From positions 1 to 64,000 of the forward strand of contig CAVXTP010000015.1 in the NCBI GenBank assembly GCA_963764715.1: a DNA stretch of 64,000 bases, read 5' to 3'. Both the position numbers and the translations under genes were made by a program. Below, in pieces: positions 9,244-28,131 of the stretch. Within the stretch, counting starts at the first letter, position 1; each line of letters begins with the position of its first letter. The notes below the pieces were generated by a model that was not told the origin of the DNA, did not search any database, and worked only from the letters and a program-made list of their open reading frames with translations. The stretch is from an uncultured Acidobacteriota bacterium (GTDB lineage: Bacteria > Acidobacteriota > Thermoanaerobaculia > UBA5066 > Gp7-AA6).

Positions 9244-9566
9244 TGACGATCCTCGCCGTCGGCGCCGAAACCGAACGGCTCGCTGCCTTCGGCGCGTCGC
9301 ATCCGTCGGTCGAGATCGTGACCGCGGACGGCGCCGAGGACGCGCTCGAGCGCCTGGCGCGCAACCGCCGAATCGACGCGGTCCTGATCCTCGCCTCGCC
9401 CGGCGCGGCCGAGACCGCGCGGCTCGTGCGCGAGGAGGATCCCGGAGCTCCCCCGCTCTTCGCGCCGGCGGCGGCGGGGGCGATCCAGGGCGTGCGCAGC
9501 CTATCGGGGACGGGCGGGGCGGAGCTCGTCGAGGAGCTGCTACGAGTGCTCGGCCCCGGTTCGTAG
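9240..9566 (+). CDS. Small protein with a degenerate receiver (CheY)-like pattern
   Basis: MMTILAVG...TADGAEDALERLARNRRIDAVLIL. ATGA-coupled to the CAP gene. The phospho-acceptor Asp is not evident. Confidence 0.6.
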   Translation: MMTILAVGAETERLAAFGASHPSVEIVTADGAEDALERLARNRRIDAVLILASPGAAETARLVREEDPGAPPLFAPAAAGAIQGVRSLSGTGGAELVEELLRVLGPGS

Positions 9567-10115
9567 GGGCGGCCCTTGTGGCCGCCCGTCACAACGGGAG
9601 GGGACAAGCCCCTCCCCTACGAAGACGTCGACATTCCCGGTGCCAACCGCGGCCCACGTTCGTAGGGGCGGCCCTTGCGGCCGCCCGTCACAACGGGAGG
9701 GGACAAGCCCCTCCCCTACGAAGACGTCGACATTCCCGGTGCCAAACGCGGCCCACGTTCGTAGGGGCGGCCCTTGCGGCCGCCCGTCACAACGGGAGGG
9801 GACAAGCCCCTCCCCTACGAAGACGTCGACATTCCCGGTGCCAACCGCGGCCCACGTTCGTAGGGGCGGCCCTTGCGGCCGCCCGTCACAACGGGAGGGG
9901 ACAAGCCCCTCCCCTACGAAGACGTCGACATTCCCGGTGCCAAACGCGGCCCACGTTCGTAGGGGCGGCCCTTGCGGCCGCCCGTCACAACGGGAGGGGA
10001 CAAGCCCCTCCCCTACGAAGACGTCGACATTCCCGGTGCCAAACGCGGCCCCCGTTCGTAGGGGCGGCCCTTGTGGCCGCCCTCCATTGGAAGAGACAAG
10101 CCCATCCCTACGAAC
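9560..10115. repeat. Tandem array of 99-bp units, each a GTAG-REP doublet (REPIN/BIME-like): 5 full units plus a variant sixth
   Basis: GTAGGGGCGGCCCTTG(C/T)GGCCGCCC starts at 9563, 9662, 9761, 9860, 9959 and 10058. The first five are paired with an inverted GGGAGGGGACAAGCCCCTCCCCTAC; the sixth partner is diverged. Confidence 0.95.
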
Positions 10116-14242: not shown

Positions 14243-14270
14243 GCGGAAGGGACGCTATCAGGGCTGAACC

Positions 14271-14414
14271 GGGCGGCCGCGACCCGGCCACCGGAGGACG
14301 ACCCCCGGCCGGAGGGAACGCCGGCGAATGCCGGCGGTAACGCCGCCCCTACGACCTCTTGGCAGATGCGGACTTCGGGGCTTCGGTCGTAGGGGCGGGG
14401 CTCGTCCCCGCCCT
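14271..14414. repeat. Two GTAG-REPs; the left one (minus strand) carries a 58-nt insert in its loop
   Basis: 14271-14352 is the reverse complement of GTAGGGGCGGCGTT-[insert]-GCGGCCGCCC. A second REP starts at 14389. Confidence 0.85.
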
Positions 14415-15359
14415 CCCCGCCACCTTCGCCCGGATCTCCCTCCGCTTCGCCCACAGGCGCTTGCGGTTCCTCCACAACCACCCGAACGCCGGCAGGGAGC
14501 TTCGCTCGACGGTCAGGCACGCCCCGAGGACCACGACGTCGCGCGCGAGCGTCGGGACGAGCGTCCGCGCGAACTCGCCCGCGGTCTGGTTGTTGATCCG
14601 CAGGATGAATCGGTTCTTGACCGAGTGCAGGTTGGCGAGCGCGGTCATCTGCCGCCGCCGTTCGGGCACGTTGCGCCGCCGGTGGTACGCCACGGCCGAC
14701 GGGACGTAGAGCGCCCTCCAGCCGAGCTTGCGCAGCCGCCAGGCGAGGTCCGCGTCCTCGCGGTAGAGGAAAAAGTCGGCGTCGAAGTAGCCGGTCGAGA
14801 TCTTCGCGCCCTCGAGCGCCGCGCGCCGGTAGAACCCGGCCGCGCCCGACGCCCCGAAAACCTCCTCCTCCCCGCCGTATCGCCCCGCCGCCGGCTCGCC
14901 CGCGCCGCGATCGAAGTGCCGGCCCGCCGCGGTGAAGCGGATCCCGGCCGAGTCGAGAAGCCCGTTTTCCGAGAGCCGCGCGCCGTCGCCCCGCAGGAGC
15001 CGCCCCGAGGCCGAGCCGACGTCGGCGGCGTCTTTCGCGTCGAGCCGCCGCGTCAGGATCGAGGCGAAGTCGGGCTCGAGGCGGCAGTCCGGGTTCAGGG
15101 CGAGGACGTAGCGCCCGGACGAGGCGTCGATGCCGGCGTTCATGGCCGCGGCGAAGCCGACGTTCTCGGGAAGGGCCAGGACCCGAACGTCCGACGACAC
15201 GCTCCGCGCGACCTCCCGCGAGGCGTCGGCGGACGCGTTGTCGACGAGGAGGGTTTCGCAGGCGATCCCCGACTGGGCGAGGGCCGAGCCGAGCGAGACC
15301 GGTAGGTCCGCCGCGTCCTCTTTGGATACGACGATGATCGAGACGTCGGGCGAGGTCAT
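14349..15359 (-). CDS. GT2 glycosyltransferase
   Basis: VDNASAD, NVGFAAAMN, LNPD and FFLYREDADL motifs. The C-terminus reads through REP sequence. Confidence 0.92.
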   Translation of the reverse strand: MTSPDVSIIVVSKEDAADLPVSLGSALAQSGIACETLLVDNASADASREVARSVSSDVRVLALPENVGFAAAMNAGIDASSGRYVLALNPDCRLEPDFASILTRRLDAKDAADVGSASGRLLRGDGARLSENGLLDSAGIRFTAAGRHFDRGAGEPAAGRYGGEEEVFGASGAAGFYRRAALEGAKISTGYFDADFFLYREDADLAWRLRKLGWRALYVPSAVAYHRRRNVPERRRQMTALANLHSVKNRFILRINNQTAGEFARTLVPTLARDVVVLGACLTVERSSLPAFGWLWRNRKRLWAKRREIRAKVAGRAGTSPAPTTEAPKSASAKRS

Positions 15360-16348
15360 GCGGCGCCGAGGCCGAGGGCGAGCGTCAGCACCCGGAAGTA
15401 GGCGCGGGCCGCTTCGGGGCGCGGGCGCGGAACGCTCCCGCGAAACGGCAGGAGGAGGAGGCGAAGCGCCATGCCCTTGACGAGGAGCAGCCGATAGACG
15501 GCGCGAGCGGCCGCGCCGTAGTGCGCTTGCCGGTACCGGATCGCGTTGCGGTAGAAGATCGGCAGGAATCGATCGTAGCCGAGGCGCGCCGCGGCGTCTC
15601 CGCCGCGATGCCGGAACCGGGCCTCCGGCAGATACAGGATCCGCCCCTCCCGACCGAGCCTCGCGCACAGGTCCACGTCCTCGTGCCAGGCCGGCACGAA
15701 GCGCTCGTCGAACCCCCCGACCCGCGCGAAGACGTCCGCCCGCACCGCGAGCGCCGCGGCGGCCGCCTGCTCGACCGCGAAGGCGCGCCCGCGGTCGGCG
15801 TCGGCGTAGCGGGCGGCGCGGCGCCCGGAGTTGTTCGGACGCAGATGATCGAGGAGCAGAAGCTCGCGCGCGTCCGAGCGGAGCGTCGGGAGCCGGCGCA
15901 GCTGAAAGGTCGCCTGGTCTTCCCGTCCGGGCGGCGCGAGGCGAAGCGGGCCGCCCGGCGTTTCGCCGTTCATCTCGATCAGGCGCGGCGCCGCCGCCAC
16001 GACGCCCGGATCGGCGTCGAAGGCCGCGGCGATCGCCGAGAAGGGATCGCCCTCCGCCCGCGTGTCGGGGTTCAGGAACAGGAACACGTCCGCCGGGGCC
16101 AACCGCGCCGCCTGGTTGACCGCCGGACCGAAGCCGCGGTTCTCCGCGTTGACGAGGATCGAGGCGTCCGGCCAGAGGGCGCGGACAGGCTCGCTCGGCA
16201 GGCCCGCCCCGTTGTCGACGATCGTGAGCCGGACGTCGACTCCGCCCGGCGGGATGCGCCGGCGCGCCTGCGCGAGCGAGGCGACCGCCTCCCGCAGCTC
16301 CTCGCCGTCCCGCCAGGACACGTAGACGACCGCGATCTTCCGGATCAC
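15356..16348 (-). CDS. GT2 glycosyltransferase
   Basis: VDNG, NRGFGPAVN, FLNPD and GGFDERF...EDVDLC motifs. Confidence 0.92.
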   Translation of the reverse strand: MIRKIAVVYVSWRDGEELREAVASLAQARRRIPPGGVDVRLTIVDNGAGLPSEPVRALWPDASILVNAENRGFGPAVNQAARLAPADVFLFLNPDTRAEGDPFSAIAAAFDADPGVVAAAPRLIEMNGETPGGPLRLAPPGREDQATFQLRRLPTLRSDARELLLLDHLRPNNSGRRAARYADADRGRAFAVEQAAAAALAVRADVFARVGGFDERFVPAWHEDVDLCARLGREGRILYLPEARFRHRGGDAAARLGYDRFLPIFYRNAIRYRQAHYGAAARAVYRLLLVKGMALRLLLLPFRGSVPRPRPEAARAYFRVLTLALGLGAA

Positions 16349-17289
16349 GCCGCGCCCGGTCCAGTCCCCGGAAAGCGCGCCAGCCGACGCGCCTCGTCGC
16401 GCGACCGCATCGCCATGGCCGGCAGCCGGGGCCAGACGAGGAGCGGCAGCGCGAGGCCGCGCCATCCGACCTGCCGGACGTGCGCGAGGTCCGCCGCGAG
16501 GAGCGGCCCGAGGTGCCGCGCCAGCAGGCCCGGCTCGAAATTGCGGAAGAGCGTGCGCCAGCGGTTGCGCGCGGTCCAGAACGCTCGCCGCCAGGGGGTG
16601 CGTCGGCCCGTCAGCGAGCCCTCGTGCCGCGCGACCGCGCGCGGGTCGCACACGAACCTCCAGCCGGCCCGCGTCAGGCGGAGCGAGAGGTCGACGTCCT
16701 CGTAGTAGGCGAAGTACGAGTCGTCGAAGACGGCGCCCGTCGCGGCGACCGCGTCGAGGGCCTCGCGCCGGTACAGCGTCGCCGTCGCCGAAACGCCCGG
16801 AACCTCGAACGGCTCGCGCGGGACGTGCGAGGCGTCCGCGCCGCCGTAGATCGGCACGGCCTCGCCGCGGCGGTTCCAGCCGATCCCCGCCGTGTCGACG
16901 AGGCGGCCGTCCTGCGACAGAACGAGGCCCTGGGCTGCGGCGATCCGGTCGTCGCCGCCGAGCCGGGCCGCGAGCCTCGCCGCGTAGTCCGGCTCGAGCA
17001 CGGCGTCGTTGTTCAGCAGCAGGACGAAGGGCGCCCGCGTCCGCGCGATGCCTTCATTGGCGGCCCCGGCGAAGCCCAGGTTGCGCGAGAAGCCGATGAC
17101 GCGGGCCGAGGGGGCCTCGGCGCCGAGGCGTCCGCGCTCCTCGGGCCGGGAACCGTTGTCGACCACGACGGCCGAGAGGTGGACGTCCGTCTGACGCTCC
17201 AGGGAGGCCAGGGCCCGGAAGAGCGCGTCGCCGCCGTCGCGGTTGACGACGACGCAATCCACGTCCGGCGTTCGGGAGGGCCCGCTCAA
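16345..17289 (-). CDS. GT2 glycosyltransferase (start uncertain: TTG 17289 or ATG 17349)
   Basis: VDNGS, NLGFAGAAN, LLNNDA and YFAYYEDVDL motifs. Confidence 0.9.
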   Translation of the reverse strand: MSGPSRTPDVDCVVVNRDGGDALFRALASLERQTDVHLSAVVVDNGSRPEERGRLGAEAPSARVIGFSRNLGFAGAANEGIARTRAPFVLLLNNDAVLEPDYAARLAARLGGDDRIAAAQGLVLSQDGRLVDTAGIGWNRRGEAVPIYGGADASHVPREPFEVPGVSATATLYRREALDAVAATGAVFDDSYFAYYEDVDLSLRLTRAGWRFVCDPRAVARHEGSLTGRRTPWRRAFWTARNRWRTLFRNFEPGLLARHLGPLLAADLAHVRQVGWRGLALPLLVWPRLPAMAMRSRDEARRLARFPGTGPGAA

Positions 17290-17347
17290 GCGGTTGACTC
17301 GATTGCGGTTGACTCGATCGGCGTGCGCGATATGAAATCGCGTTTTC

Positions 17348-18604
17348 ATGCTACCACGCGAGTACCTGCGGGAGAACGCGGCCCGCCTGCTGCAGGAGAT
17401 GCCGGAGCGCTTCGGCGGCGCGAGCCTCGAGACGTATACGGAGCTCGACCGCGAGCGTCGCGAGGCGGTCACGCTGCTCGAGGAGAAGCGCCGCCGCCGT
17501 AACGAGCTCACGTCCGTCCGCGGCAAGCCCTCCCCCGAGGCCCTCGAGGAAATGAAGGCGCTCAAGGAGGAGATCCGCGCCCTCGAGGAGCGCGTCGAGG
17601 AGGCCGACGGCATGCTCGCCGCGGTCGAGAAGCAGGTCCCCAACGTCCCGCAGGACTCGGTCCCGCGCGGCGCCGACGAGACCGCCAACCGCGTCGAGCG
17701 CCATTGGGGCGAGCCGCGGAAGTTCGACTTCGTGCCGCAGGCGCACTGGGACCTCGGGCCGGCCCTCGGCATCCTCGACTTCGAGCGCGGCGCGAAGATC
17801 GCGGGAGCGCGGTTCACCGTCCTCTCCGGCGCCGGGGCGCGGCTGTCCCGCGCGCTCATCAACTTCTTTCTCGACGTGCACGTCGAGGAGCACGGCTATC
17901 GCGAGCTCCTGCCGCCCTTCCTCGTCAACGCGGACTCGCTCTTCGGGACGGGCCAGCTCCCGAAGTTCGAGGACGACCTCTTCAAGACCACCGCGGGCTA
18001 CTACCTCGCCCCGACAGCCGAGGTGCCCGTGACGAACCTTCATCGCGACGAAATCCTGAAGGCCGAGGAGCTGCCCAGGCTCTACACCGCCTACACGCCG
18101 TGCTTCCGCTCGGAGGCGGGCGCCGCGGGGCGCGACACGCGGGGAATGATCCGACAGCACCAGTTCGACAAGGTCGAGGTCGTCATGTTCGTCCGGCCCG
18201 AGGAATCGGCCGCGGCGCACGAGGTCCTGACCGACCATGCCGAGGAGCTCCTGCGCCGGCTCAATCTCCCGTACCGGGTCGTCACGCTCTCGACCGGCGA
18301 CCTCGGGTTCGCCTCGGCGAAGACGTACGACATCGAGGTCTGGCTTCCCGGCATGAGCGCGTACAAGGAGATCTCGTCCTGCTCGAACTTCGAGGCGTTC
18401 CAGGCGCGGCGCGCCTCGATCCGCTTCCGCCGGGCCGAGGGAGACAAGCCCGAGTTCCTCCACACGCTGAACGGCTCGGGGCTGCCGGTCGGCCGCACGA
18501 TGGTCGCGATTCTCGAGAATTATCAGCGGCCGGACGGATCGGTCGAGATCCCCGAGGTCCTGCGTCCGTACATGCGCGGCCAGACGGAGATCCGCCGGGC
18601 CTGA
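17348..18604 (+). CDS. serS: Serine--tRNA ligase
   Basis: [37 protein letters not shown] and HTLNGSGL motifs. Confidence 0.98.
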
Positions 18605-18620
18605 CCGGTCGGGCGCGTCG

Positions 18621-19481
18621 GTGCCGCAGAAGCACGTCCTCGAGGCGGTCCTTCGCGCGGCGCGCGGGCGGCCGGGCTACCCGAAGCTCCGGGTCCTCGA
18701 CCTCTCGGCCGGGCGCGGCGAGATCGCGTCGGCGCTCGCGGCGGACGGGTGCGCGGTCCGCGGGACGCACTTCCGGGCCGACGACTACAAGCTGACGGAC
18801 CCGGCGAAACCGCCGCAGACCGCCGGCCTTCCGATCGACGCCGACGTCGACCTGACCCGCCCGTTGCCGTACGCCGACGCGGCGTTCGACCTCGTCATCC
18901 TCTGCGAGGTGGCCGAGCACCTGACGACCTGGATCCCCGTCGTCTCGGAGATCGGCCGCGTGCTCGCGCCGGGCGGAAGCCTCGTCCTCTCGACGCCGAA
19001 CGTGGCGCGCCTTCATTCGCGCTGGCATTTCTTCTGGACCGGGACCCACAAGCTGATCCGCCGCCGGACGGGCTGGGACCTCTCGGCCGACGAGCTCTAC
19101 GCCTACCACATCAGCCCGGTCGACTTTCCGCTGCTCCACACGCTGCTTCGCCAGGCGGGCCTCTCGGTCGAGCGGATCGACGTCACGCGGTTCAAGTGGA
19201 AGCACGCCTGGCTCTTCCTGCTCTATCCCTTCGTCTGGCTCTCGACCCGCCTCGAAACCCGGCGCCACCGCGGCGGCTCCGAGCACGCGCGCGGCGAGGA
19301 CGACCTCTTCCACTGGATGACCCGCCCCGCCATGCTCGGCAGCGAGCAGCTGCTCCTCACCGGGGTCAGGTCTTCAAATTTCGGATCCGCAAAAATGAAA
19401 AATGAAGACCTGACCCCCATTTCCAACCGCGCCAGAACGGGCGAAAGCGAAATCGGCGAATCGGGATTTCCGCAGAACTGA
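18621..19481 (+). CDS. Class I SAM-dependent methyltransferase
   Basis: VLDLSAGRG, LPYADAAFDLV, EVAEHL and RVLAPGG...STPN motifs. The last ~40 codons run through a repeat element. Confidence 0.85.
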   Translation: MPQKHVLEAVLRAARGRPGYPKLRVLDLSAGRGEIASALAADGCAVRGTHFRADDYKLTDPAKPPQTAGLPIDADVDLTRPLPYADAAFDLVILCEVAEHLTTWIPVVSEIGRVLAPGGSLVLSTPNVARLHSRWHFFWTGTHKLIRRRTGWDLSADELYAYHISPVDFPLLHTLLRQAGLSVERIDVTRFKWKHAWLFLLYPFVWLSTRLETRRHRGGSEHARGEDDLFHWMTRPAMLGSEQLLLTGVRSSNFGSAKMKNEDLTPISNRARTGESEIGESGFPQN

Positions 19482-19503
19482 AAAATGAAGACGACCTGAC
19501 CCC
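19362..19503. repeat. GGGGTCAG-ended inverted-repeat element (REP/MITE-like)
   Basis: GGGGTCAGGTCTTCA (19362-19376) / TGAAGACCTGACCCC (19403-19417), plus a third GACCTGACCCC at 19493-19503. The interior is AT-rich. Confidence 0.8.
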
Positions 19504-20103
19504 CTAGCGGGGCGGGACGAGGGCGCCGGCGGAGACGATCATCTTCATGGCCTGCTCCGGCGTCATGTCGAGGTAGGTCACCTTCTCCTCCGGCACGACG
19601 AGGAGAAAGCCCGTCGTTGGATTGACGGCGCTCGGGATGAAGAGGCTGCAGAGCTTACGACCCGTCTTCTCGCTCGCCTCGCTCGCGGCGGTCGACGTCA
19701 CGAACCCGAGGCCCCATGTGCCCGGCGACGGGAACTCGACAATCGCCACGCGGCCGAAGGCGCCGACGCGCGACGGCCCCAGCAGCAGCTCCGCGATCTG
19801 ACGAAGCGTCGCGTAGATCTTGTTGATGAGCGGCACCCGGTTCATGAGCCGGTCCCACAGGCCGAAGAGCCGCTTCCCGAAAAAGTTCGCCGCGACGAAC
19901 CCGAGCAGAAGGATCAACGCGTTCAGCAGCACGAACCCGAGCCCGAGGACGGAGATGCCGCGGGCGCGCAGCTCCCCTCCGAGGATGTCGTCGAAGAATT
20001 TGAAGAGCTTCCAGACGACCCACGCCGTCAGCGCCGTCGGCGCGAGAACGAGAATGCCGGCCACGTAGTAGCGCCGCAGTCGGGTCCCGAAGGTCGCCGC
20101 CAT
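19504..20103 (-). CDS. DUF502 family membrane protein
   Basis: AGILVLAP, RVPLINKIY, VEFP, FIPSAVNPTTGFL and AMKMIVSAG motifs. Confidence 0.92.
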   Translation of the reverse strand: MAATFGTRLRRYYVAGILVLAPTALTAWVVWKLFKFFDDILGGELRARGISVLGLGFVLLNALILLLGFVAANFFGKRLFGLWDRLMNRVPLINKIYATLRQIAELLLGPSRVGAFGRVAIVEFPSPGTWGLGFVTSTAASEASEKTGRKLCSLFIPSAVNPTTGFLLVVPEEKVTYLDMTPEQAMKMIVSAGALVPPR

Positions 20104-20135
20104 CGATTTCATCCTAACCCGTACAATGGACGTCG

Positions 20136-21173
20136 ATGCGATTCCGGCGCGCCGCGCTCTGCCTCCTCGCGCTGCTGACGCCAGCCGCCGCCGTCCGGGC
20201 CGCCTGGCAGACCTCGGGACCGGCGGGCGCGCGCGCCAACGCGGTCAGCGCGGCGGGCGGCGAGCCGGCCGTCGCCTACGCCGCCGCGACGGTCCTCGAG
20301 TCCTCGACGAGCGCGCTCTACCGGACGGACGACGGCGGGCAGTCGTGGACGGGCCTCGTCGAGGCCGCTCGCGGCGACTCCTACGCGCAGGTCTACGCGG
20401 ATCCCCGCGGCGGCGGACGCGTCTTCGCCGCGCTCCAGAAGGGAACCGGCGCTACCGACATCCTGCGCTCGGTCGACCATGGCGACAACTGGAGCACCGT
20501 CCTCACCGTCTCGACGCGCTGCGTCCCGTCCTTCGAGACGGGCGCGGGCCCGGACTCGGTCGTCTTCTCCTGCGGGACCCGCTTCTTCCGGACGACCGAT
20601 GCCGGCCTCTCCTGGAACGAGCCCGCGACGCCCTTCGGCGAGAACGTCCGCCTGGCGGCCGGAGGCGGCGGAGTGCTGTACGCCTACGGCGTCTCGCACA
20701 TCTACCGAAGCGTCACCGGCGGTTCCACGTGGGTCGAGGCCGGCGCCGCGCCACCCGCCTGCCCCGGGCTCCTCTCCCTCCGGATCGACCCCGCCGATCC
20801 CTCCGTCTTCCTCGCCGGGACCGGCATGGTCGGCGCCGGTGGCTTTCAGTGCGGCGGCGTGTATCGCAGCGCCAACGCCGGAGCAAGCTGGTCGGCGCCC
20901 GGGCTTTCGGGCGTCTACGTGACGGACCTCGCCTTCGATCCGACGGATTCCTCGCGCGTCTACGCCTGCGCGAGCTACGTCGCCGGCATCCTTCCCCCCG
21001 GCGGCGTCTACGCCAGCGGCGACGGCGGGCGCTCCTTCGGGAACCTCCGCCTGCCGACGACCGGCGCCCTCGACCTCGCCGTCTCCGCCAACGGCGGGAT
21101 CGTGCACGCGGCGACCGGGCTCGGCGTCTACGAGGATCGCATTCGGAAGACGCGCGTCGTGCCGCCGCGGTAG
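20136..21173 (+). CDS. Secreted BNR/Asp-box beta-propeller protein
   Basis: Signal peptide and repeated (R/S)xDxGxSW Asp-boxes. Confidence 0.85.
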   Translation: MRFRRAALCLLALLTPAAAVRAAWQTSGPAGARANAVSAAGGEPAVAYAAATVLESSTSALYRTDDGGQSWTGLVEAARGDSYAQVYADPRGGGRVFAALQKGTGATDILRSVDHGDNWSTVLTVSTRCVPSFETGAGPDSVVFSCGTRFFRTTDAGLSWNEPATPFGENVRLAAGGGGVLYAYGVSHIYRSVTGGSTWVEAGAAPPACPGLLSLRIDPADPSVFLAGTGMVGAGGFQCGGVYRSANAGASWSAPGLSGVYVTDLAFDPTDSSRVYACASYVAGILPPGGVYASGDGGRSFGNLRLPTTGALDLAVSANGGIVHAATGLGVYEDRIRKTRVVPPR

Positions 21174-21188
21174 GAATCCCGGATTAGC

Positions 21189-21340
21189 AAGTGGCGGAGA
21201 GGACGGGATTAAACGCCGCGATTCGCGCGACGTTCCCTACTGCCGGGGGTCTGCGATACCGCCGCGCGTTGCGCGGCGTTCCCTACTGCCGGGGGTCTGC
21301 CTCCGGTGGTCGGGTCGGTGGTCGGGTCGAACCCGTCGTA
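21189..21340 (-). pseudogene. Copy of the tRNA-Ser(GCT) 3' part (T-arm, acceptor strand, CCA) with a 118-nt insert in the T-loop
   Basis: 21189-21210 is identical to 21352-21373. GAACCCGT resumes at 21329. Confidence 0.8.
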
Positions 21341-21354
21341 CAGCTCGGCGAAAG

Positions 21355-21448
21355 TGGCGGAGAGGACGGGATTTGAACCCGTGGTAGAGGTTTAAGCCCC
21401 TACGGCGGTTTAGCAAACCGCTGGTTTAAGCCACTCACCCACCTCTCC
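21355..21448 (-). tRNA. tRNA-Ser(GCT)
   Basis: GGAGAGG/CCTCTCC acceptor stem, anticodon arm GCGGT-TTGCTAA-ACCGC, long variable arm, GGTTCAAATCC, encoded CCA. Confidence 0.97.
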
Positions 21449-21494
21449 GCGAGCGACCGTCGGGCGGATGTTAGCGCATCGGCTTCGCTCGGGA

Positions 21495-21603
21495 ACCAGC
21501 GGTTCGGCGCTTCGCGGCGCCGCTGGGTTAGCGCCGGCCAAGCCGGCGCTGCCTCGGCGCTTCGCGCCTCGACTCAAGCCACTCACCCACCTCTCCGCGA
21601 GCG
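21495..21603 (-). pseudogene. Copy of the tRNA-Ser(GCT) 5' part with hairpin inserts in the D-loop and anticodon loop
   Basis: 21576-21603 is identical to 21428-21455. After a ~46-nt insert, AACCCAGCGG...AACCGC resembles the D-stem end and anticodon stem. Confidence 0.72.
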
Positions 21604-21663
21604 GCCTGAGAGGGCATCCTAACCCGAAAGATCTCGTTCACCTTCAGGTTAGGATCGCCCGTC

Positions 21664-23848
21664 ATGTCGGGTCGGAAATTGCTGATCGCCCTGGTCTTGG
21701 CAGCAATCGCGGCCGGAGGCGTCTGGGTGTATCGCAACTCCTCCATCGAACGCCTGCGGGCGGAGTTCCGTCCGTGGATGGCGAGGCTCGAGCGGTGGCG
21801 GGACGCGAACGAGGCGATCCGGTGGGCGCTCCGGAGCCGCGAGTCGACGCCGGCGGACCCCGGAGGAATCGCGGAACTCCGCGCCTGGGCCTGGAACGGA
21901 ATCGAGAAGCTCGCCTACGTCGACTACCGCGTCGAGAAGCCGGCGCACGACGGCGAGTCGACGACGGGGCGGGTGGAATTCACCGTCGGAGGCTTCCGGC
22001 CGGACGGCGCGCGGGTCGAGCGGACGGCGACCGCGCTCGTGACGAGCGAGGCACCCCCGGGCCGCGTTCGGCTGCGGTTCGAGAGGTCGCTGACCGATCG
22101 GGTCGAGTCCTCGCCCCGCTTTCGCAACACCACCGCCGCGGCCGGTCTCGGCGCGCCGCGGCGGGACCCGCCGATCGACAAGGTCAACCACCTCGTCGCG
22201 GACCTCTGGCCGGGTTCGGGCGTCGCGGTGCTCGACTTCGATCGGGATGGCGCCGAGGACCTCTTCGTCGGCGACGGCGTGCGCTCCATCCTCTACAAGG
22301 GCGACGGGACCGGGCGCTTCACGGACGTCACGGAGAAGGCGGGCCTGGCGAAGTCTTCGACCGAAGGCATTCCCGCGACCGGGCTCGCGGCCGGCGACGT
22401 CGACGGGGACGGCTATCCGGATCTGTTCGTCACGAACGCGTTCGGCCCGGCGCGGCTCTTCCGCAACCGCGGCGACGGGACCTTCGAGGAGACGACCGCC
22501 GCCTCCGGCATCGCGGTGCCCGCGAACGCGCGTTCCGCCGCCTTCGCGGACGTCGACGGCGACGGGGACCTCGATCTCTTCGTGGCGGTGACCGGCGACT
22601 ACTACAGCCAGATGCCGGATCCGGCCTTCGACGCGAAGGACGGCCGCGCGAACTTCCTGTATCTGAACGACGGACACGGCCGCTTCACCGACGCCACGAA
22701 GGCCTGGGGCATCGCGGGCGAGACGCGCTGGACGCTCTCGGCCCTCTTCCAGGATTACGACCAGGACGGCCGCGAAGACCTCATGGCGACGAACGACTTC
22801 GGCTTGAAGAACCTCTACCGCAACGTCGGCGGCCGCTTCGAGGACGTCGCGAAGAAGACCGGCACTCTCTCGCGCGCCTATGGCATGTCCGGCGCGTGGG
22901 CGGACTACGACGGCGACGGCCGGCCCGACATCTACGCCACCGGGACCGACACGCAGTGGTACTTCCTCCACGAGTACCCCTCCATCCCCGTGACCTTCTG
23001 GGGCCGTGTCTTCCTGCGGACCGCCGTCCAGTGGTGCGAGGACATGGCCTCCGGCAACACCCTCCTCCTTCAGCGGCCCGACCACACGTTCGAGGACGCG
23101 ACCGCGCGCTCGGACGCAAAGCACGCCGGCTGGAACTGGAGCTCGATCGCCGCCGATCTCGACGACGACGGCTGGCCCGACATCTACGCCACCAACGGCC
23201 TCTGGGGCGACGGCCGGGACCGGGACGTCGCGCTCGAGTTCTGGTGGCAGACGCTCGCGTACTGGGACGACTACGTCGCCGGAACGAAGACGTTCGACCG
23301 GAAGGGCGCCGGGATCAATGGCATCGAGCGCGACCGGTACTTCCGCAATCGCGGCGGCGCCGAGGCGGGATCGCCGCTCTTCGAGGAGCGGGCCTTCCTC
23401 GACGGCCTCGACCTCGAGTCGAACGGCCGCGCCGTGGTCGCCTTCGACGCCAACGGCGACGGCGCGCTCGACCTCTTCGTCCGCTCGGTGCAGGCGCCCG
23501 AGGCGCTCTTCCTCGGCTCGCGCCGTCCGGACGAGCACTACCTCCGTCTGCGACTCTCCGGCACGCCCGGCGTCGACAACCGGGACGGCCTCGGCGCCCG
23601 TGTCGAGGCGACGCCTGCCCGGCGGCCGCCGCATCGTGACCGAGAACTCCAACCCGAGCGGTTATCTCTCGACGGGCAGCCCCATCGTTCACCTCGGGCT
23701 CGGAAAGGCCCGGGCCGTCGAGAGCCTCGTCGTGACGTGGCCCTCCGGCAAGGCCCAGAATCTGGGACGGATCGACGCCGTCGACCGCGAGCTGCGCGTC
23801 GACGAAGCCGCTCCCGTCGTCCAGGTGTCGGCGGCGCGGCCGCGTTAG
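21664..23848 (+). CDS. CRTAC1-family protein (FG-GAP/VCBS repeats plus ASPIC/UnbV), frameshift near 23610
   Basis: Multiple DxDGDGxxDL repeats. The C-terminal GYLS...VHLGLG...VTWPSG ASPIC motif continues in another frame. Confidence 0.88.
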
Positions 23849-23861
23849 ACTAGACGGACCC

Positions 23862-25457
23862 ATGGAGACCCCGACCCGCGATCCTCTCCATTACGACGTC
23901 GTCGTCGTGGGCGGCGCCGTTTCCGGCGCTTCGACCGCAATCCTCCTGAAGCGCGGCAAGCCGGACCTGAAGATCCTCGTCGTCGAGAAGACCGACAAGT
24001 TCGACTGGAAGGTCGGCGAGTCGACCGTCGAGATCTCCGCGTACTTCCTGACGCGCGTCCTCAAGCAGTACCGCCACCTCTCGCAGGACCAGCTTCCCAA
24101 GCAGGCCTTCCGGTTCTGGTTCCACAACGACGACGTCACGCGCCTTCAGGAGGCCTCGGAGACCGGGCCGACGATGCTCGCGCGCACGCCGTCCTTCCAG
24201 CTCGACCGCGCGAAGCTCGACGAGAACCTCCTCAAGGTCGCCCGCGAGGAGGGCTCCGAGGTCTGGCGGCCCGCGAAAGTCGCCGCCTGGACGCTCGGCG
24301 AGGGCGCGGCCCCGAACACGTTGACGATCGAGAAGAGCGACGGCACGACCGTCACCGTCACCTCGCGGTGGCTCGTCGACGCGACGGGACGGCAGGCGAT
24401 GCTCGCCCGCAAGCGCGGCGGCGTGACGCCCATCGACTCCCACCCGACCTCGGCGATCTGGGTGCGCTACGACGACGTCAAGGACATGGACGGCGTCGAC
24501 ATCGCGGGGACCGACCCCGCCAACCCGTGGTCGCGCGCCGTGCTGACGGCCCGGCGCCTGGCGACGAACCACTTCACCGGCTGGGGCTACTGGATCTGGT
24601 TCATCCCGCTCCAGGACGGCCAGACGAGCGTCGGCCTCGTCTGGGACAAGCGCCTCGTGAATCCCGAGGGCCGCACGCCGCTCGAGAAGCTGACGCGGTT
24701 CCTCGACGGCAATCCGCTCTCCCGCCAGTTGATCGAGGGCGCGACGCCGATCGAGGGCGACTGCCGCTACTACGCGCACCTGCCGTACTTCGTCGACAAG
24801 TTCGTCGGCCCGGGCTGGGCGCAGGTCGGCGACGCGGGCGGGTTCCTCGATCCCTTCTACTCTCCCGGCCTCGACCAGATGGCCTTCTCGGTCTGGACGC
24901 GCACGCGCCTGATCCTGAAAGAGCTCGGGGGCGCGCCGTCCGCGGAGATGACGAAGTCCTACGCAGAGCACAACCGGCAGTACGACCGGTTCTTCAAGTA
25001 CTTCTACGAGTCGATCTACCGCGACAAGTACTACGTCATGGGCGACTACGACACCATGACGATCGCGTTCCTCCTCGACACGGCGCTCTACTACTTCGCG
25101 GCCGTCATGCCGATCTACCGTTGGTCGCACGAGCGGCTCGGGGTGCCTCCGTTCTTCGAGGACGGCGCCGAGGTCGGCTTCTACCCGATCCGCTTCTACA
25201 ACCGGCGCCTGGTGAAGATCGCGCAGCGCAAGAAGGCGCTCGGAATCTACGGCAACCACAACGCCGGGCGGCGGCCGAAGTTCGTGGGCTTCTCGATCCG
25301 AAGCTCCATGTGGGTCATGCTGTTCCACGGACTGCTCCGCTGGGGCAAGGCCGAGCTCGCCAACGCCTGGACTTACGTCGTCCGGCCGAAGCCGATGACG
25401 AAGCCCGAACCGGCGGCCGCCCCGGCCCCCGAACCGCAGAGCATCTCGGCGCGCTGA
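23862..25457 (+). CDS. Flavin-dependent halogenase-like oxidoreductase (tryptophan halogenase family)
   Basis: Rossmann VVVGGAVSG, KVGES, VDATG, WIWFIP (WxWxIP) and GDAGGFLDPFYSPG motifs. Confidence 0.82.
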   Translation: METPTRDPLHYDVVVVGGAVSGASTAILLKRGKPDLKILVVEKTDKFDWKVGESTVEISAYFLTRVLKQYRHLSQDQLPKQAFRFWFHNDDVTRLQEASETGPTMLARTPSFQLDRAKLDENLLKVAREEGSEVWRPAKVAAWTLGEGAAPNTLTIEKSDGTTVTVTSRWLVDATGRQAMLARKRGGVTPIDSHPTSAIWVRYDDVKDMDGVDIAGTDPANPWSRAVLTARRLATNHFTGWGYWIWFIPLQDGQTSVGLVWDKRLVNPEGRTPLEKLTRFLDGNPLSRQLIEGATPIEGDCRYYAHLPYFVDKFVGPGWAQVGDAGGFLDPFYSPGLDQMAFSVWTRTRLILKELGGAPSAEMTKSYAEHNRQYDRFFKYFYESIYRDKYYVMGDYDTMTIAFLLDTALYYFAAVMPIYRWSHERLGVPPFFEDGAEVGFYPIRFYNRRLVKIAQRKKALGIYGNHNAGRRPKFVGFSIRSSMWVMLFHGLLRWGKAELANAWTYVVRPKPMTKPEPAAAPAPEPQSISAR

Positions 25458-25470
25458 AGCCGGGGCGCGC

Positions 25471-26250
25471 ATGCCGACGGCACTCATCACGGGCGCCTCG
25501 AGCGGGATCGGGCTGGAGCTGGCTTCGGTCGCGGCGCGCGATCGGCACGACCTCGTCCTCCTCGCCCGCAACCGCGAGCGCCTCGACTCGATCGGCCGCG
25601 GCCTCCAGGAAGAGTTCGGCGTCCGGGTCTCGATCCTCGCGAAGGATCTCCGCGAGCCGGCGGCGCCGGCCGAGATCGGGCGGGAGCTCGCCGACCGCCG
25701 AATCGCGGTCGACGTTCTCGTCAACAACGCCGGTATTGGCCTCTACGGCTTCTTCGCGAACACGACGCTCGACCGCGAGCTCGAGATGATCCAGGTCAAC
25801 GTCGCCGCGCTGACGCACCTGACGAAGATCTTTCTTCCCGCGATGCTCGAACGCAAGAGCGGACGAATCCTGAACCTCGCCTCCACGGCCGCCTTCCAGC
25901 CGGGCCCGATCATGGCGGTCTACTACGCCACCAAGGCTTACGTTCTCTCGTTTTCCGAGGCCCTCGCCAACGAGACGGCCGGGACGGGGGTCACGGTCAC
26001 GGCCCTGTGCCCCGGCCCGACGCGCACCGAGTTCCAGCGGCGCGCGGGAATCGGGCGGATCCCGCTCGTCCGCGCGCCTCTCGTGTCCGAGGCCGCGAAC
26101 GTCGCGCGCGAGGGCTGGGACGCGATGAAGCGGGGCAAGCGCGTCGTCGTTCCGGGGATCGCCAACCGGGCACTCGTCCAGGCCGAGCGCATCACGCCGC
26201 GCCGGCTCGTGACCGCCATCGCACGAAAGCTCCAGGAGTCCAGAAAATGA
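25471..26250 (+). CDS. Short-chain dehydrogenase/reductase
   Basis: TGASSGIG, NNAG and YYATK motifs. Confidence 0.95.
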   Translation: MPTALITGASSGIGLELASVAARDRHDLVLLARNRERLDSIGRGLQEEFGVRVSILAKDLREPAAPAEIGRELADRRIAVDVLVNNAGIGLYGFFANTTLDRELEMIQVNVAALTHLTKIFLPAMLERKSGRILNLASTAAFQPGPIMAVYYATKAYVLSFSEALANETAGTGVTVTALCPGPTRTEFQRRAGIGRIPLVRAPLVSEAANVAREGWDAMKRGKRVVVPGIANRALVQAERITPRRLVTAIARKLQESRK

Positions 26251-26264
26251 AGGAGGCCGATCGC

Positions 26265-27728
26265 ATGACCCGCGCACGCCGGACCCTCGTGGCCCTGTTA
26301 ACCCTCGGAAGCCTCTCGATCCTCGCGGCCGCGTCGCCGCTCTTCGCCGCCAACCCGGCCCAGCCGCTCGCGCAGAACCCCGAGGTCGCCGCGGCGCTCG
26401 AGGTCTTCGACACGTGGGTGGACTGGACCGCGAAGAACCGCGACCAACCGGCCGTCTCGGTCGGAATCGTGTACGACCAGGAGCTCGTCTTCGCGAAGGG
26501 TTACGGCTACGCGGACCTCGGGCGGAAGATCCCGGCCACGCCCGCGACGGCTTACCGCATCGCGTCGATTTCGAAGACCTTCACGGCGCACGCCATCCTG
26601 CAGCTGCGCGACGCCGGCAAGCTGACGCTCGACGACCCGATCACGAAGTGGATCCCGGAGTTCAAGTTCTCCGGCGTCGACCCGGAACGGCCGGTCATCA
26701 CGATCCGGCACCTGCTCACCCACACCAGCGGCATCCCGCGCGAGGTCGACGGGACCTACTGGAACGACATGAAGTTCCCGTCGCGCGAAGCGATGGTCCC
26801 GATCCTCAACCGGATGGGCGTCGCGTTGCCGTCCGAGACCGAGTGGAAGTATTCCAACGTCGCCGTCGCCCTGGCGGGTTACATCGTCGAAGCGGCTTCC
26901 GGCGAGCCCTATGCCGAGTACGTCGCCCGACACGTCCTCGCCCCCCTCGGAATGACCGGCACGCGCGTCATCCCGCCGACCGACATGCCGTCGCTCGTCG
27001 TTCCCTATGGCCGGCGGATGCCCGGCAAGCCCCGCCGCGTGGAGCCGTTCTTCAACGGCGCGTACATGACTCCCGCATCGAACCTCGCGTCGACCGTGGA
27101 CGATCTCGCGAAGTACATCTCGCTCCAGTTCCGCACGGGCCCGGCCGGCGGCGCGCAGATTTTGAAGGGCACGACCCTCGCCGAGATGCAGCGGGTGCAG
27201 TGGCTGCAGCCCGACTGGAAGAGCGGATGGGGCCTCGGCTGGGGCATCTCCCGCCGCGACGATCAGACCCGCGTCGGCCACGGCGGAAGCGTGCCGGGCA
27301 ATCGCACGCAGATTTCGTTCGTGCCCTCGCAGAAGTTCGGCGTCATCGCGCTGACGAACTCCGAGGACGGCCGGCCCGGCCTCTACCTTAACCAGGCCTA
27401 CACGATCGTGGCGCCCGCGATCGCGAAGGCCGTCGCCGCGGAGGCGAAGACCCCGGTCGCCGATTCGGCCTGGAACAAGTACGTCGGCGTCTACACCTGG
27501 GAGGATGAGGAGATCCACGTTGCCGTCCTCGACGGCCGGCTCACGATGTTCGACCCGTCCGAGGACAACCCCTGGGAGTCCAAGGTCGTGCTCGAGCCCG
27601 TCTCCGCCAACGTCTTCCGCCAGAAGGGCGGCGACGCCACCGGCGAGACCGTCACGTTCATCCTCGACCCCGCCGGCAAGGTCGTCCGCTACGAGGCCCC
27701 CGGCTACTACATGTCCCGGAGGCCGTAG
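26265..27728 (+). CDS. Secreted serine hydrolase, beta-lactamase/PBP class C-like
   Basis: SISK, LLTHTSG, YSN and HGG motifs; AGGAGG RBS; signal peptide. Confidence 0.92.
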   Translation: MTRARRTLVALLTLGSLSILAAASPLFAANPAQPLAQNPEVAAALEVFDTWVDWTAKNRDQPAVSVGIVYDQELVFAKGYGYADLGRKIPATPATAYRIASISKTFTAHAILQLRDAGKLTLDDPITKWIPEFKFSGVDPERPVITIRHLLTHTSGIPREVDGTYWNDMKFPSREAMVPILNRMGVALPSETEWKYSNVAVALAGYIVEAASGEPYAEYVARHVLAPLGMTGTRVIPPTDMPSLVVPYGRRMPGKPRRVEPFFNGAYMTPASNLASTVDDLAKYISLQFRTGPAGGAQILKGTTLAEMQRVQWLQPDWKSGWGLGWGISRRDDQTRVGHGGSVPGNRTQISFVPSQKFGVIALTNSEDGRPGLYLNQAYTIVAPAIAKAVAAEAKTPVADSAWNKYVGVYTWEDEEIHVAVLDGRLTMFDPSEDNPWESKVVLEPVSANVFRQKGGDATGETVTFILDPAGKVVRYEAPGYYMSRRP

Positions 27729-27768
27729 GGGTGGGGATCGCTGCGTCTATGGAATCAGGGTTTCGGTC

Positions 27769-28000
27769 GTAGGGGCGGCGTTACCGCCGTGCTTCGCACG
27801 GCGTTCCCTACTGCCGGGGGTAAGCCTTCGGTGGCCGGGTCGTGGCCGCCCGTCATGGCGGGGAGGGGACAAGCCCCTCCCCTACGACCGGGGGCCCGTA
27901 ACGTTCCTTCTCCGGTCGTAGGGGCGGCGTTATCGCCGTGCTTCGCACGGCGTTCCCTACTGCCGGGGGCCTGCCTTCGGTGGTCGGGTCGCGGCCGCCC
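27769..28000. repeat. GTAG-REP cluster with two loop-expanded REPs upstream of tRNA-Ser(TGA)
   Basis: GTAG starts at 27769 and 27918, each with a 59-nt insert. An inverted REP ends at 27885. Confidence 0.9.
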
Positions 28001-28041
28001 TTGATGCCAACCTCGGAACGCCTCCGCTACACTGACGCGAC

Positions 28042-28131
28042 GGAGGAGTGGCCGAGTGGTTTAAGGCGGCGGTCTTGAAAACCGCTGTACCGGAAACGGT
28101 ACCGGGGGTTCAAATCCCTCCTCCTCCGCCA
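28042..28131 (+). tRNA. tRNA-Ser(TGA)
   Basis: GGAGGAG/CTCCTCC acceptor stem, GCGGT-CTTGAAA-ACCGC, variable arm GTACCG-GAAA-CGGTAC, CCA end. TACACT -10 at 28028. Confidence 0.97.

Follow-up and report, generated by a model that had tools for sequence, protein, structure and literature searches.

The 64,000-nt stretch of contig CAVXTP010000015.1 analyzed here (the window), from an uncultured Acidobacteriota bacterium, contains copies of a structured module of about 58-62 nt, which we judge to be a small non-autonomous mobile repeat with a preference for loops. With middling confidence, we suggest that the module represents a family of small, non-autonomous mobile DNAs confined to one genus, and that it inserts, in single-stranded form or into a single-stranded target, at a short T-rich site. 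The structure of the module, the range of its settings, its presence or absence at matched sites, and its junction rule, orientation rules, and taxonomic range are established by direct observation.

Module copies in the window

Module copies are found at 14280-14340 (-), 27781-27843 (+), 27930-27991 (+), and 21210-21328 (+), and all four places given in the first-pass annotation of this DNA were real. A gapped core pattern has three exact matches in the window, compared to none in each of 100 shuffles. The features concerned are as follows.

9563..9587, + strand: plain REP of the module-hosting type, empty form
14270..14352, - strand: GTAG-tagged REP with a module copy (14280-14340) in its loop
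21192..21211, + strand: acceptor and T-stem half of a partial copy (antisense) of the tRNA-Ser(GCT) 3' end; left flank of the insertion
21210..21255, + strand: outer module copy A, 5' part (hairpin 1, P2 5' strand, P3 5' strand)
21256..21316, + strand: inner module copy B, within the last small loop of copy A
21317..21328, + strand: outer module copy A, 3' part
21329..21354, + strand: 8 nt that complete the split T-stem, then 18 nt of spacer reaching the intact tRNA
21355..21448, - strand: intact tRNA-Ser(GCT), adjoining the interrupted partial copy
27769..27851, + strand: GTAG-tagged REP with a module copy (27781-27843) in its loop
27918..28000, + strand: GTAG-tagged REP with a module copy (27930-27991) in its loop
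28042..28131, + strand: intact tRNA-Ser(TGA)

As previously claimed, three of the copies interrupt the loop of a REP; the host is the GTAG-tagged type, whose plain form lies at 9563-9587. The predicted fold of 27769..27851 consists of the host stem, hairpin 1, and P2/P3. The REP-hosted copy at 27930-27991 is only 2 bases apart from a copy outside any REP (C21:330481-330544). The site matching 14270..14352 is a plain REP in the genomes G017, G018, and G055, while in G041, the closest relative of the studied genome (G000), it holds the same module copy with an internal deletion of 22 nt.

The fourth site splits the T-loop of a tRNA-Ser, also as claimed, the tRNA being a partial copy of the tRNA-Ser(GCT) 3' end. 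What had been read as a tandem pair at 21211-21328 turned out to be a nested one, with the inner copy in the loop of the outer copy. At the matching site in G041 and in G013 the outer copy stands alone, the inner copy being present in G000 and absent from both relatives. The tRNA-fragment arrangement is common to the three assemblies (G000, G041, and G013), which excludes the assembly chimera that had been considered. The nested form was found again at C21:253108-253220 and in G012 and G023. Another tRNA setting is seen in G041 (two units), G013, and G017, where a duplicated 5' piece of tRNA-Ser(TGA), promoter included, carries the module in its D-loop; the tRNA-Ser(TGA) locus of the window is without this module-bearing duplication.

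Structure and ends of the module

The module lacks coding capacity and terminal inverted repeats. The fold, formed by one strand, has three helices: hairpin 1 (8 bp, capped by a TNC triloop), a long-range stem of 3 bp, and a third helix of 10 bp in which G.T/G.U pairs abound. Pairing amounts to 97.3% over 43 copies, against 87.3% in shuffles. In hairpin 1, 98.5% of the cells are paired and both sides change in 4 of 8 pairs, which upholds the earlier statement that differences in the first stem mostly preserve pairing; C|TNC|G loops close this hairpin in 63 of the 93 parsed copies. Covariation is seen in hairpin 1 and in the long-range stem, a pair of which is G-C in 22, C-G in 13, and U-A in 8 of the 43 copies. 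The third helix, with 3-5 conserved G.U pairs, is maintained solely through G-C to G-U changes and therefore exists on one strand only. A further pairing joining the two ends (5' ACCGCCG with 3' CGGTGGN) was compatible in 88% of cells, with covariation not above that of shuffles, and was dropped.

The ends are sharp on the consensus G|TTACC...GGS|TC. Across 97 distinct copies, G occupies position -1 in 85, and T and then C follow GGS in 79 each. The rule proposed earlier, insertion after TT and before G, is literally true of the four copies in the window and gives way to this consensus in the family as a whole. Copies that are nearly identical in sequence and lie in unrelated flanks have exactly the boundaries G|TTACC...GGSTC in common. 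The 5' side is ragged, with 5'-truncated and 5'-extended copies, and some copies have an additional conserved 5' stretch of about 12 nt which looks like flank picked up from a tRNA setting. The module matches no Rfam covariance model of known RNA families, including small ribozymes: in a gathering-level search of the window with Rfam 15 only the two tRNAs passed, and nothing credible appeared over 27650-28050 at E up to 10.

Host settings and orientation

A genome-wide search with tabulation of the flanks, as proposed in the first-pass annotation, revealed 56-60 copies in the studied genome (52 of them full) in diverse settings. REP loops of two stem types host 30 of the 52 full copies, in one orientation throughout, the GTAG arm lying 5' of the module in 30/30. 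The genome has 278 REPs in total, 212 of which have a 5-nt CTYGY loop. The other 22 full copies are located in the T-, anticodon-, and D-loops of partial tRNAs, in other hairpin repeats, in other copies of the module, or just 3' of gene ends; the two REP stem types and these 22 copies show that the module is not tied permanently to a single REP subtype. The hosts thus span tRNA loops of three kinds, hairpin repeats of at least three further families, and the module's own loops; ten or more kinds of host site are mutually non-homologous. The partial tRNA copies that host the module adjoin intact tRNA genes, and in 7/7 distinct tRNA-loop settings the module is antisense to the tRNA.

The proposal that the module targets stem-loops stands for these many loop settings, but not for about 13 of the 52 full copies, which are positioned just past gene ends with no evident host hairpin, nor for one host repeat in which the site lies within a stem strand. 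The broader description, a minimal non-autonomous element that hitch-hikes on REPs, is borne out in part: the unit is discrete, structured, and non-coding and occurs in many unrelated settings, but loop targeting was overstated. Permutation of the flanks gave a host-stem energy of -15.5 kcal/mol observed against -12.1, a control spoiled by the resemblance of REP flanks to each other, so that the assignment of host hairpins relies on the listing of individual copies. In a poorly resolved tree, REP-hosted and non-REP copies are intermixed (13 label changes compared to 17 when shuffled, of which only at least 2 are forced). Of the 51 intergenic copies, 35 are oriented like the upstream gene, as judged with a crude gene caller. 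Module orientation relative to GC skew is split 30 to 30, skew being uninformative here (rho -0.07 with gene orientation).

Filled and empty sites

Empty alleles, which the first-pass annotation had suggested looking for in relatives, include the plain REPs of G017, G018, and G055 described above and a clean filled/empty pair between G041 and G000 (ACTAT|TCGCG), in which no base was lost and none duplicated. At matched sites the insertion point is T|T(C) and target duplication is absent. Within G041, paralogous REP units with identical flanks include one filled and one empty unit. The tRNA-Ser(CGA) gene was located in 29 genomes (30 loci); its T-loop is filled in 8 of them and plainly empty in, for example, G013. 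Orthologous empty sites can be read at base level for a minority of copies only, because whole host repeats differ between species.

Junctions in REPs are imperfect, with 1-2 host bases replaced. Most REP-hosted copies share one junction type, and they may therefore derive from few insertions that then spread with the REP. Copies are frequently accompanied by short duplications of local sequence (12-66 nt, with 66 nt at the uvrB end) or by 80-170-nt tandem units. These features and the ragged 5' side could reflect transposition, but template switching or recombination during copying would explain them equally well. A target-site duplication of fixed length was rejected, as the clean pairs have no duplication and those seen at other copies vary from 12 to 66 nt, and a classical MITE is not supported either, given no covarying end pairing and no fixed duplication. 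A simple staggered-cut model for the tRNA arrays was discarded because the module is inside the second partial copy rather than between copies. In G010, a REP with only the module ends in its loop resembles a footprint; it was read as an internal deletion, since an intermediate deletion in a second copy ends at the same point and all copies of G010 are degenerate.

Distribution and the search for a mover

The module was found in all 25 genomes of the genus that were searched, with 1-111 copies each. It was absent from 16 genomes of other families of the order, and 140 other genomes of the phylum gave one weak match (E 4e-4), the only one in the approximately 156 genomes searched outside the genus. 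Apart from this weak match, the family was seen in a single genus of soil Acidobacteria.

Among candidate movers, Y1/HUH enzymes were the one class seen in the studied genome. Across 25 genomes, many of them incomplete assemblies, Y1_Tnp gene counts bear no relation to module counts (modules/Y1 of 111/0 in G005, 48/0 in G022, and 2/4 in G024), and the HUH role put forward earlier gains no support from them. The studied genome has five Y1 matches, four without a module within 3 kb. The remaining one, a RAYT at C17:16470-16937, is about 2.5 kb from one module. This is the sole REP-flanked RAYT, and it is flanked by plain REPs only. Searches of the studied genome for TnpB (PF07282), an IS110-type DEDD transposase (PF01548; controls matched in six genomes), and a Y2 transposase (PF04986; the control genomes gave none either) had no match, and RVT_1 was detected in just one of the genus's 41 genomes, which is not the studied one (controls matched in three genomes).

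Proposed mechanism and alternative explanations

We infer single-stranded DNA as the substrate and a nuclease acting in trans. A new copy would be single-stranded itself or would be placed in a single-stranded target, at T|T or T|TC and with the target left unduplicated; the T-rich sites would be those exposed in loops and junctions of self-folding DNA. Such exposure would explain copies in the loops of REPs, other repeats, tRNA genes, and the module itself, as well as their fixed orientation. Inside a REP, the module could additionally travel with its host. At essential targets such as tRNA genes and gene 3' ends, the survivors would be those events that left an intact copy beside the interrupted one.

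The module could instead have arisen a few times within repeats and been copied passively by RAYT, by slippage or template switching, or by gene conversion, which we think unlikely though far from negligible. Consistent with this, REP-hosted copies have junction types in common, filled and empty REPs in otherwise identical paralogous units fit conversion, and the nested double has one junction in G000, G012, and G023, which implies that it spreads as a unit. The 5' flank that is carried along, the tandem units and 12-66-nt duplications next to copies, the short T...TC microhomology at junctions, and the lack of a mover gene in the Y1, TnpB, IS110, Y2, and RVT_1 searches point the same way. Against it are the sharp, identical ends across unrelated flanks, the one clean insertion in which nothing was lost and flanking homology is at most 1-3 nt, the ten or more kinds of host site without common homology, and the strict orientation rules. 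Alternatively, selection may act on a functional structured RNA, such as a 3'-UTR stabiliser or a protein-binding element, with spread being secondary. The conserved G.U pairs of the third helix, confined to the given strand, point as much to RNA as to DNA; the predicted fold of that strand as RNA reaches -33.8 kcal/mol (z -3.6) compared to -26.8 (z -2.0) for the other, and the co-orientation of 35/51 intergenic copies with the upstream gene, by the same crude caller, agrees. This explanation is nevertheless rather improbable, as the tRNA promoter would not make the module strand in any of the 7/7 antisense settings, copy number varies from 1 to 111 within a genus with copies nested in each other, and Rfam gave no match. 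The TNC triloop is moreover the complement of GNA, which would favour the other strand, as DNA. GNA loops closed by C:G are a very stable type of DNA mini-hairpin.

A recombination site used by a site-specific recombinase on folded single strands (attC/CTX-type), with the duplications as att-type repeats of miniature elements, would account for the intact tRNA or gene end that is always restored beside the interrupted partial copy, as at integrase targets, for crossover-like junctions with a 1-3-nt shared core, and for a strand-asymmetric, imperfect fold. We consider it very unlikely, because the duplicated segments match each local target and no single attP could carry them, the units are gene-less and merely 80-170 nt, REP and MITE hosts show simple insertion without duplication, and attC end motifs are not apparent in a comparison by eye with the consensus. 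A SINE-like retroelement, its RNA copied by target-primed reverse transcription, would be expected to have the sharp 3' and ragged 5' ends, the 5'-truncated and 5'-extended copies, the flanking duplications of variable length (e.g., 66 nt at the uvrB end), the RNA-like G.U helix, and the TC microhomology at the 3' junction that are seen here; the RVT_1 result, with its matching controls, brings it close to refutation, and because the 5' tRNA pieces were duplicated together with their promoter, these duplications arose as DNA. We give this explanation almost no weight.

Within our preferred reading of a mobile module entering single-stranded DNA, a bolder form is tentative and on balance doubtful, namely that the module represents a hitherto undescribed kind of very small mobile DNA that recognises its target by nucleic-acid shape and not by sequence, with oriented single-stranded entry and with a host or domesticated nuclease in place of its own transposase. 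Entry would then occur into short T-rich loops of any folded DNA, whether in REPs, in further repeat families, in tRNA genes (D-, anticodon-, and T-loops), or in the module itself. A description of a comparable element was not found in full-text searches of the openly available literature.

Comparison with known systems

IS200/IS605 elements have neither terminal inverted repeats nor target duplication, insert in an oriented manner at a short target, and have structured ends; PATEs are their gene-less derivatives. The module likewise has structured ends and no terminal inverted repeats, and a single-stranded DNA substrate, as in IS200/IS605, would explain its liking for loops. The resemblance in insertion is partial: the clean pairs have a T|T(C) junction and no duplication, and orientation is fixed relative to REPs (30/30) and tRNAs (7/7), but the target amounts to only 2-3 nt, rather than a fixed tetra- or pentanucleotide, and 1-2 bases are replaced at REP junctions. 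In contrast, TnpB is absent, the two hairpins of the module are dissimilar, and a full-length parent with the module's ends was not seen.

GTAG-tagged REPs/REPINs are associated with RAYT (Y1 HUH) enzymes (Bertels & Rainey 2011, PMC3116915; Ton-Hoang et al. 2012, PMC3333891), and REP families with long self-complementary loops, up to 27 bp, are described by Di Nocera et al. 2013 (PMC3733652). Like REPs/REPINs, the module is a short, GC-rich, structured, non-coding intergenic repeat, 30/52 copies of which are in REPs, in a genome with one REP-flanked RAYT gene. Unlike them, it is a three-helix unit rather than a 20-40-nt palindrome and has no GTAG tag, 22/52 copies lie outside REPs, it nests in itself and in tRNA loops, and its numbers do not track those of Y1 genes, a comparison weakened by incomplete assemblies. 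Mobile DNA landing inside REP hairpins is known from IS1397/ISKpn1 (IS3) and from IS621 and others (IS110), which aim at REPs according to Tobes & Pareja 2006 (PMC1525189). Those elements are autonomous and 1-1.5 kb long, whereas the targets of the module are far more varied than one REP sequence; the DEDD transposase of IS110 was not found in the studied genome. Rickettsia palindromic elements and other small structured repeats that occur within genes, including tRNA-related ones (PMC3733652), are similarly tolerated within functional sequences. They are in-frame in coding regions, whereas the module occupies loops of non-coding hairpins and spare tRNAs with an intact gene alongside.

The 3' repeats of E. 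coli tyrT (rtT RNA) are tandem units of about 170-180 nt after a tRNA gene, each with the last ~19 nt of the tRNA. The arrangement at C1:65270-65610 is similar, with a tRNA followed by tandem units each containing its last ~19 nt. To our knowledge, the tyrT repeats, whose origin has never been explained, have no structured module nested within a split T-loop, whereas arrays of the module family do. The element rttR is treated in 10.1101/2024.07.17.603846.

Implications

Small structured repeats fill bacterial intergenic DNA, and in very few cases have a mover and a target rule been established. In the module family the target rule is unusually clear (short T-rich loops, fixed orientation, absence of duplication, and a series of nested insertions), which makes the mechanism testable with oligonucleotides and a few candidate nucleases. 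Such repeats break assemblies and mislead the annotation of tRNAs and small RNAs in Acidobacteria genomes. The module may also account for the pattern, known since the E. coli tyrT repeats, in which intact tRNA genes adjoin partial copies and tandem tRNA-tail units, and if shape-targeting is true, the puzzling arrays of partial tRNAs beside intact genes would be explained.

Copies and hosts of the module

The module is a structured, non-coding repeat of about 60 nt in the genome of an uncultured Acidobacteriota bacterium (assembly of 26 contigs, 4.36 Mb, 70% G+C). Within the window, which spans positions 1-64000 of contig C15, it is found in the loops of REPs, which are GTAG-tagged hairpin repeats, and in a partial tRNA copy.

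Module copies and related features in the window
9563-9587: plain REP, of a type identical to the module-hosting REPs
14280-14340, minus strand: module in the loop of a GTAG-tagged REP
21210-21328: module site splitting the T-loop of a partial 3'-end copy of tRNA-Ser(GCT)
21210-21255 and 21317-21328: outer module copy
21256-21316: inner module copy, within the last small loop of the outer copy
21355-21448: intact tRNA-Ser(GCT), next after the interrupted partial copy
27781-27843, plus strand: module in the loop of a GTAG-tagged REP
27930-27991, plus strand: module in the loop of a GTAG-tagged REP

The unit that the first-pass annotation had reported at four places was present at all four on inspection. 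Both the three REP-loop copies and the plain REP at 9563 are seen in the sequence, and the fourth site was rightly placed in the T-loop of a tRNA-Ser copy. The supposed tandem pair at 21211-21328, however, is an inner copy nested in an outer one. A gapped core pattern gave 3 matches in the window and 0 in 100 shuffles.

A profile made from the first 28 matches gave 60 genomic locations of the module at E < 0.001 (52 near full length), and a covariance model found 56 copies. This genome-wide search with tabulated flanks, which the first-pass annotation had proposed, turned up non-REP settings besides REP loops. REPs of two stem types host 30 of the 52 full copies, with the GTAG arm 5' of the module in all 30. 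The remaining 22 lie in loops of partial tRNA copies (3), inside other module copies at two distinct positions (5), in another hairpin repeat (1), or directly after or before genes without an evident host hairpin (13). By sequence pattern the genome contains 278 REPs; a plain CTYGY loop of 5 nt is present in 212 of them, and in about 27 the loop measures 60-69 nt and is the module. One module (C21:252751-252808, adjoining tRNA-Gln(CTG)) carries an extra small hairpin in its own hairpin-1 loop.

That the module is a fixed part of one REP subtype is contradicted by its other hosts and by near-identical copies in and outside REPs. The REP copy at 27930 and a non-REP copy at C21:330481-330544 differ by two bases. 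When the 52 copies are placed on a tree, REP and non-REP labels need 13 changes, compared with 17 when the labels are shuffled; the tree is built on few columns, and its well-supported branches force just two label changes. In relatives, the module occurs in at least three further hairpin-repeat families distinguished by their terminal arms, in one of which it takes an equal position in both arms, within the stem strand and not the loop. At the site in genome G023 matching window 25466-25470, where two genes nearly abut in the window, there is a hairpin repeat of about 250 nt from another family with one module per arm in mirror positions. Orthologues of window 14245-14395 (loci L079-L104) and loci L213-L215 carry hairpin-repeat families that differ by species, with at least four kinds by terminal arms within the genus, so that such spacers turn over very fast.

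Settings at tRNA genes and gene ends

Partial tRNA copies with a module in the T-loop are those of tRNA-Ser(GCT), Ser(CGA), Ser(GGA), and Ala(GGC); partial Ser(GGA) and Ser(CGA) copies also hold it in the anticodon loop, and a duplicated Ser(TGA) 5' piece that includes the promoter holds it in the D-loop. In every tRNA setting an intact tRNA gene adjoins the interrupted piece, and the module runs antisense to the tRNA in each of the seven distinct settings. G041, the closest relative, has the Ser(GCT) arrangement of the window too, as does G013, with two tandem units; it is absent at the matching site in G017 and G023. The sharing indicates that the arrangement is old and is not the assembly chimera that the first-pass annotation had allowed for. 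Of 30 Ser(CGA) loci fetched, one (G007) was without an anchor; the gene was located in 29 genomes, 8 of which carry a split T-loop downstream of it. In others, such as G013, the gene passes straight into native flank; such sites are examples of the empty alleles that had been sought in relatives. The interrupted Ser(CGA) piece comprises a T-arm, a degenerate variable arm, and some ten bases of native trailer. It is therefore a partial copy of the gene that arose by local duplication, and the loop of this spare copy holds the module. A simple long staggered cut was also considered for the tRNA layout, and did not reproduce this arrangement.

The final 21 codons of uvrB occur twice at its end (C22:402576-402639), near-identically, around eight bases and a module. 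The two ends (locus L046, C22:402300-402900) differ in their stop codons, TGA and TAG. At this site the repeat is missing from G003, which does have the module, and two tandem units are present in G013. Several copies on contig C21 and one in G004 likewise show a conserved gene end, the module, and a second gene-end copy. Local duplication beside module copies is therefore common but not constant. Modules also recur between paralogues of a large tandem gene family (C21:318000-394000 and C13:127800-137400), whose genes have a conserved C-terminal end (...VKTFNLQ stop).

Insertion junctions

The cleanest filled and empty pair is at C3:22427, filled in G041 and empty in the source genome (ACTAT|TCGCG). 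Here the unit sits between two T's with zero loss and zero duplication, and the Ser(CGA) and Ser(GGA) T-loops are consistent with this T|T rule. The position after TT and before G given by the first-pass annotation is borne out in the four window copies; over 97 distinct copies the module ends read G|TTACC...GGS|TC, with a sharp 3' end and a less sharp 5' side. In REP hosts the module takes the place of one or two bases where arm and loop of the host meet, and its final base is the last base of P2, directly before host TTGT. This replacement was seen in two otherwise identical paralogous G041 units and in two pairs between G041 and the source genome. Some copies have an extra conserved stretch of about 12 nt, matching a degenerate anticodon-stem half of the tRNA-Ser settings; at C18:51306 most of a repeat retained in three relatives has given way to this stretch together with the module. 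Flank can thus travel along with the module.

Fold and strand

Structural elements in an alignment of 43 module copies
Hairpin 1: 8 bp; 98.5% of cells paired; 4 pairs with changes on both sides
P2: 3-bp long-range stem; outer pair G-C in 22, C-G in 13, and U-A in 8
P3: up to 10 bp; 91.8% paired; 3-5 conserved wobble pairs

The values for hairpin 1 agree with the earlier remark that first-stem differences preserve pairing. P3 variation consists nearly entirely of G-C to G-U changes, and because of the conserved wobble pairs P3 is formed only by the strand as written. RNA folding gave -33.8 kcal/mol (z -3.6) for this strand and -26.8 (z -2.0) for the other, whereas in DNA folding the two were near-equal (-16.8 and -15.4). 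Of 93 parsed copies, 63 have C|TNC|G as the hairpin-1 loop; the complement of this loop is C|GNA|G, the very stable DNA mini-hairpin type to which the first-pass annotation referred. The written strand is favored by P3 and the RNA fold and the other by C|GNA|G, and with such mixed signals the working form may be either one DNA strand or RNA. No Rfam family matches the module.

Candidate enzymes

Five Y1_Tnp matches were found in the source genome, comprising one RAYT (the Y1-type gene linked to REPs), three larger proteins, and one fragment.

RAYT and larger Y1 proteins
C17:16470-16937: RAYT, 155 residues, flanked by plain REPs
C6:495318-496274, C4:28583-29557, C7:33483-34445: Y1 proteins of about 320 residues with HUH and Y motifs

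In the three larger proteins a Y1 (HUH) transposase domain at the N terminus is followed by a long C-terminal extension, and neither REPs nor modules flank their genes. The nearest module to the RAYT is about 2.5 kb away, and the other four matches have none within 3 kb. A nuclease gene of RAYT/Y1 type flanked by the module, which the first-pass annotation had proposed to look for, was thus not found among these five matches. Y1 counts do not follow module counts across 25 genomes. TnpB and IS110-type transposases had no match in the source genome, nor had Y2 transposase, though the Y2 search had no working control. Reverse transcriptase genes occur in one of 41 genus genomes (G010); this near-absence, together with the promoter-containing duplications, makes an RNA-copying route unlikely. 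GC skew carries no information in the source genome. Among Y1, TnpB, IS110, Y2, and reverse transcriptase, nothing qualifies as the mover.

Taxonomic range

The covariance model matched all 24 same-genus genomes sampled, plus G041 (29 copies), with 1 to 111 copies per genome within the genus. In two further families of the order, 16 genomes gave no match. Another 140 genomes, representing 101 other genera of the phylum, gave one weak match (E 4e-4), and a second genus of the family to which the module-bearing genus belongs is among those without a match. These figures refer to genome samples in which many assemblies are incomplete. In G010 every module copy scores poorly, as though the family were decaying there, and REP loops at loci L070 and L095 hold only module remnants, with internal deletions that have a common end point.

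Nature of the module

The main rival to transposition is passive copying of the module by REP spread, template switching, and conversion. In its favor are the junctions shared among REP-hosted modules, the flank that can accompany the unit, and the duplications next to copies; we nevertheless regard it as unlikely, and the clean insertion at C3:22427 speaks against it. That the module is primarily an RNA in role seems improbable, and a folded recombination site more improbable still. A retroelement is the least credible of these, since reverse transcriptase was found in one of 41 genomes and some duplications include a promoter.

The nearest known systems are GTAG-REPs and REPINs with their RAYTs, gene-less IS200/IS605 derivatives, REP-aiming insertion sequences, Rickettsia palindromic elements and, for the tRNA arrays, the E. 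coli tyrT repeats. Wherever a defining test of these systems gave a clear outcome, it went against the module. Di Nocera et al. (PMC3733652) reported REPs with long self-complementary loops but no unit that also occurs outside REPs, and a full-text literature search found no account of such an element.

Sharp shared ends, clean insertion, and presence or absence at matching sites argue for a mobile element, as do self-nesting, the strictness of the orientation rules, and a copy number that varies widely. We give about an even chance to the module being a small non-autonomous mobile element that favors short T-rich single-stranded stretches in folded DNA. Its substrate would be single-stranded DNA, and its mover may be an HUH-type enzyme.
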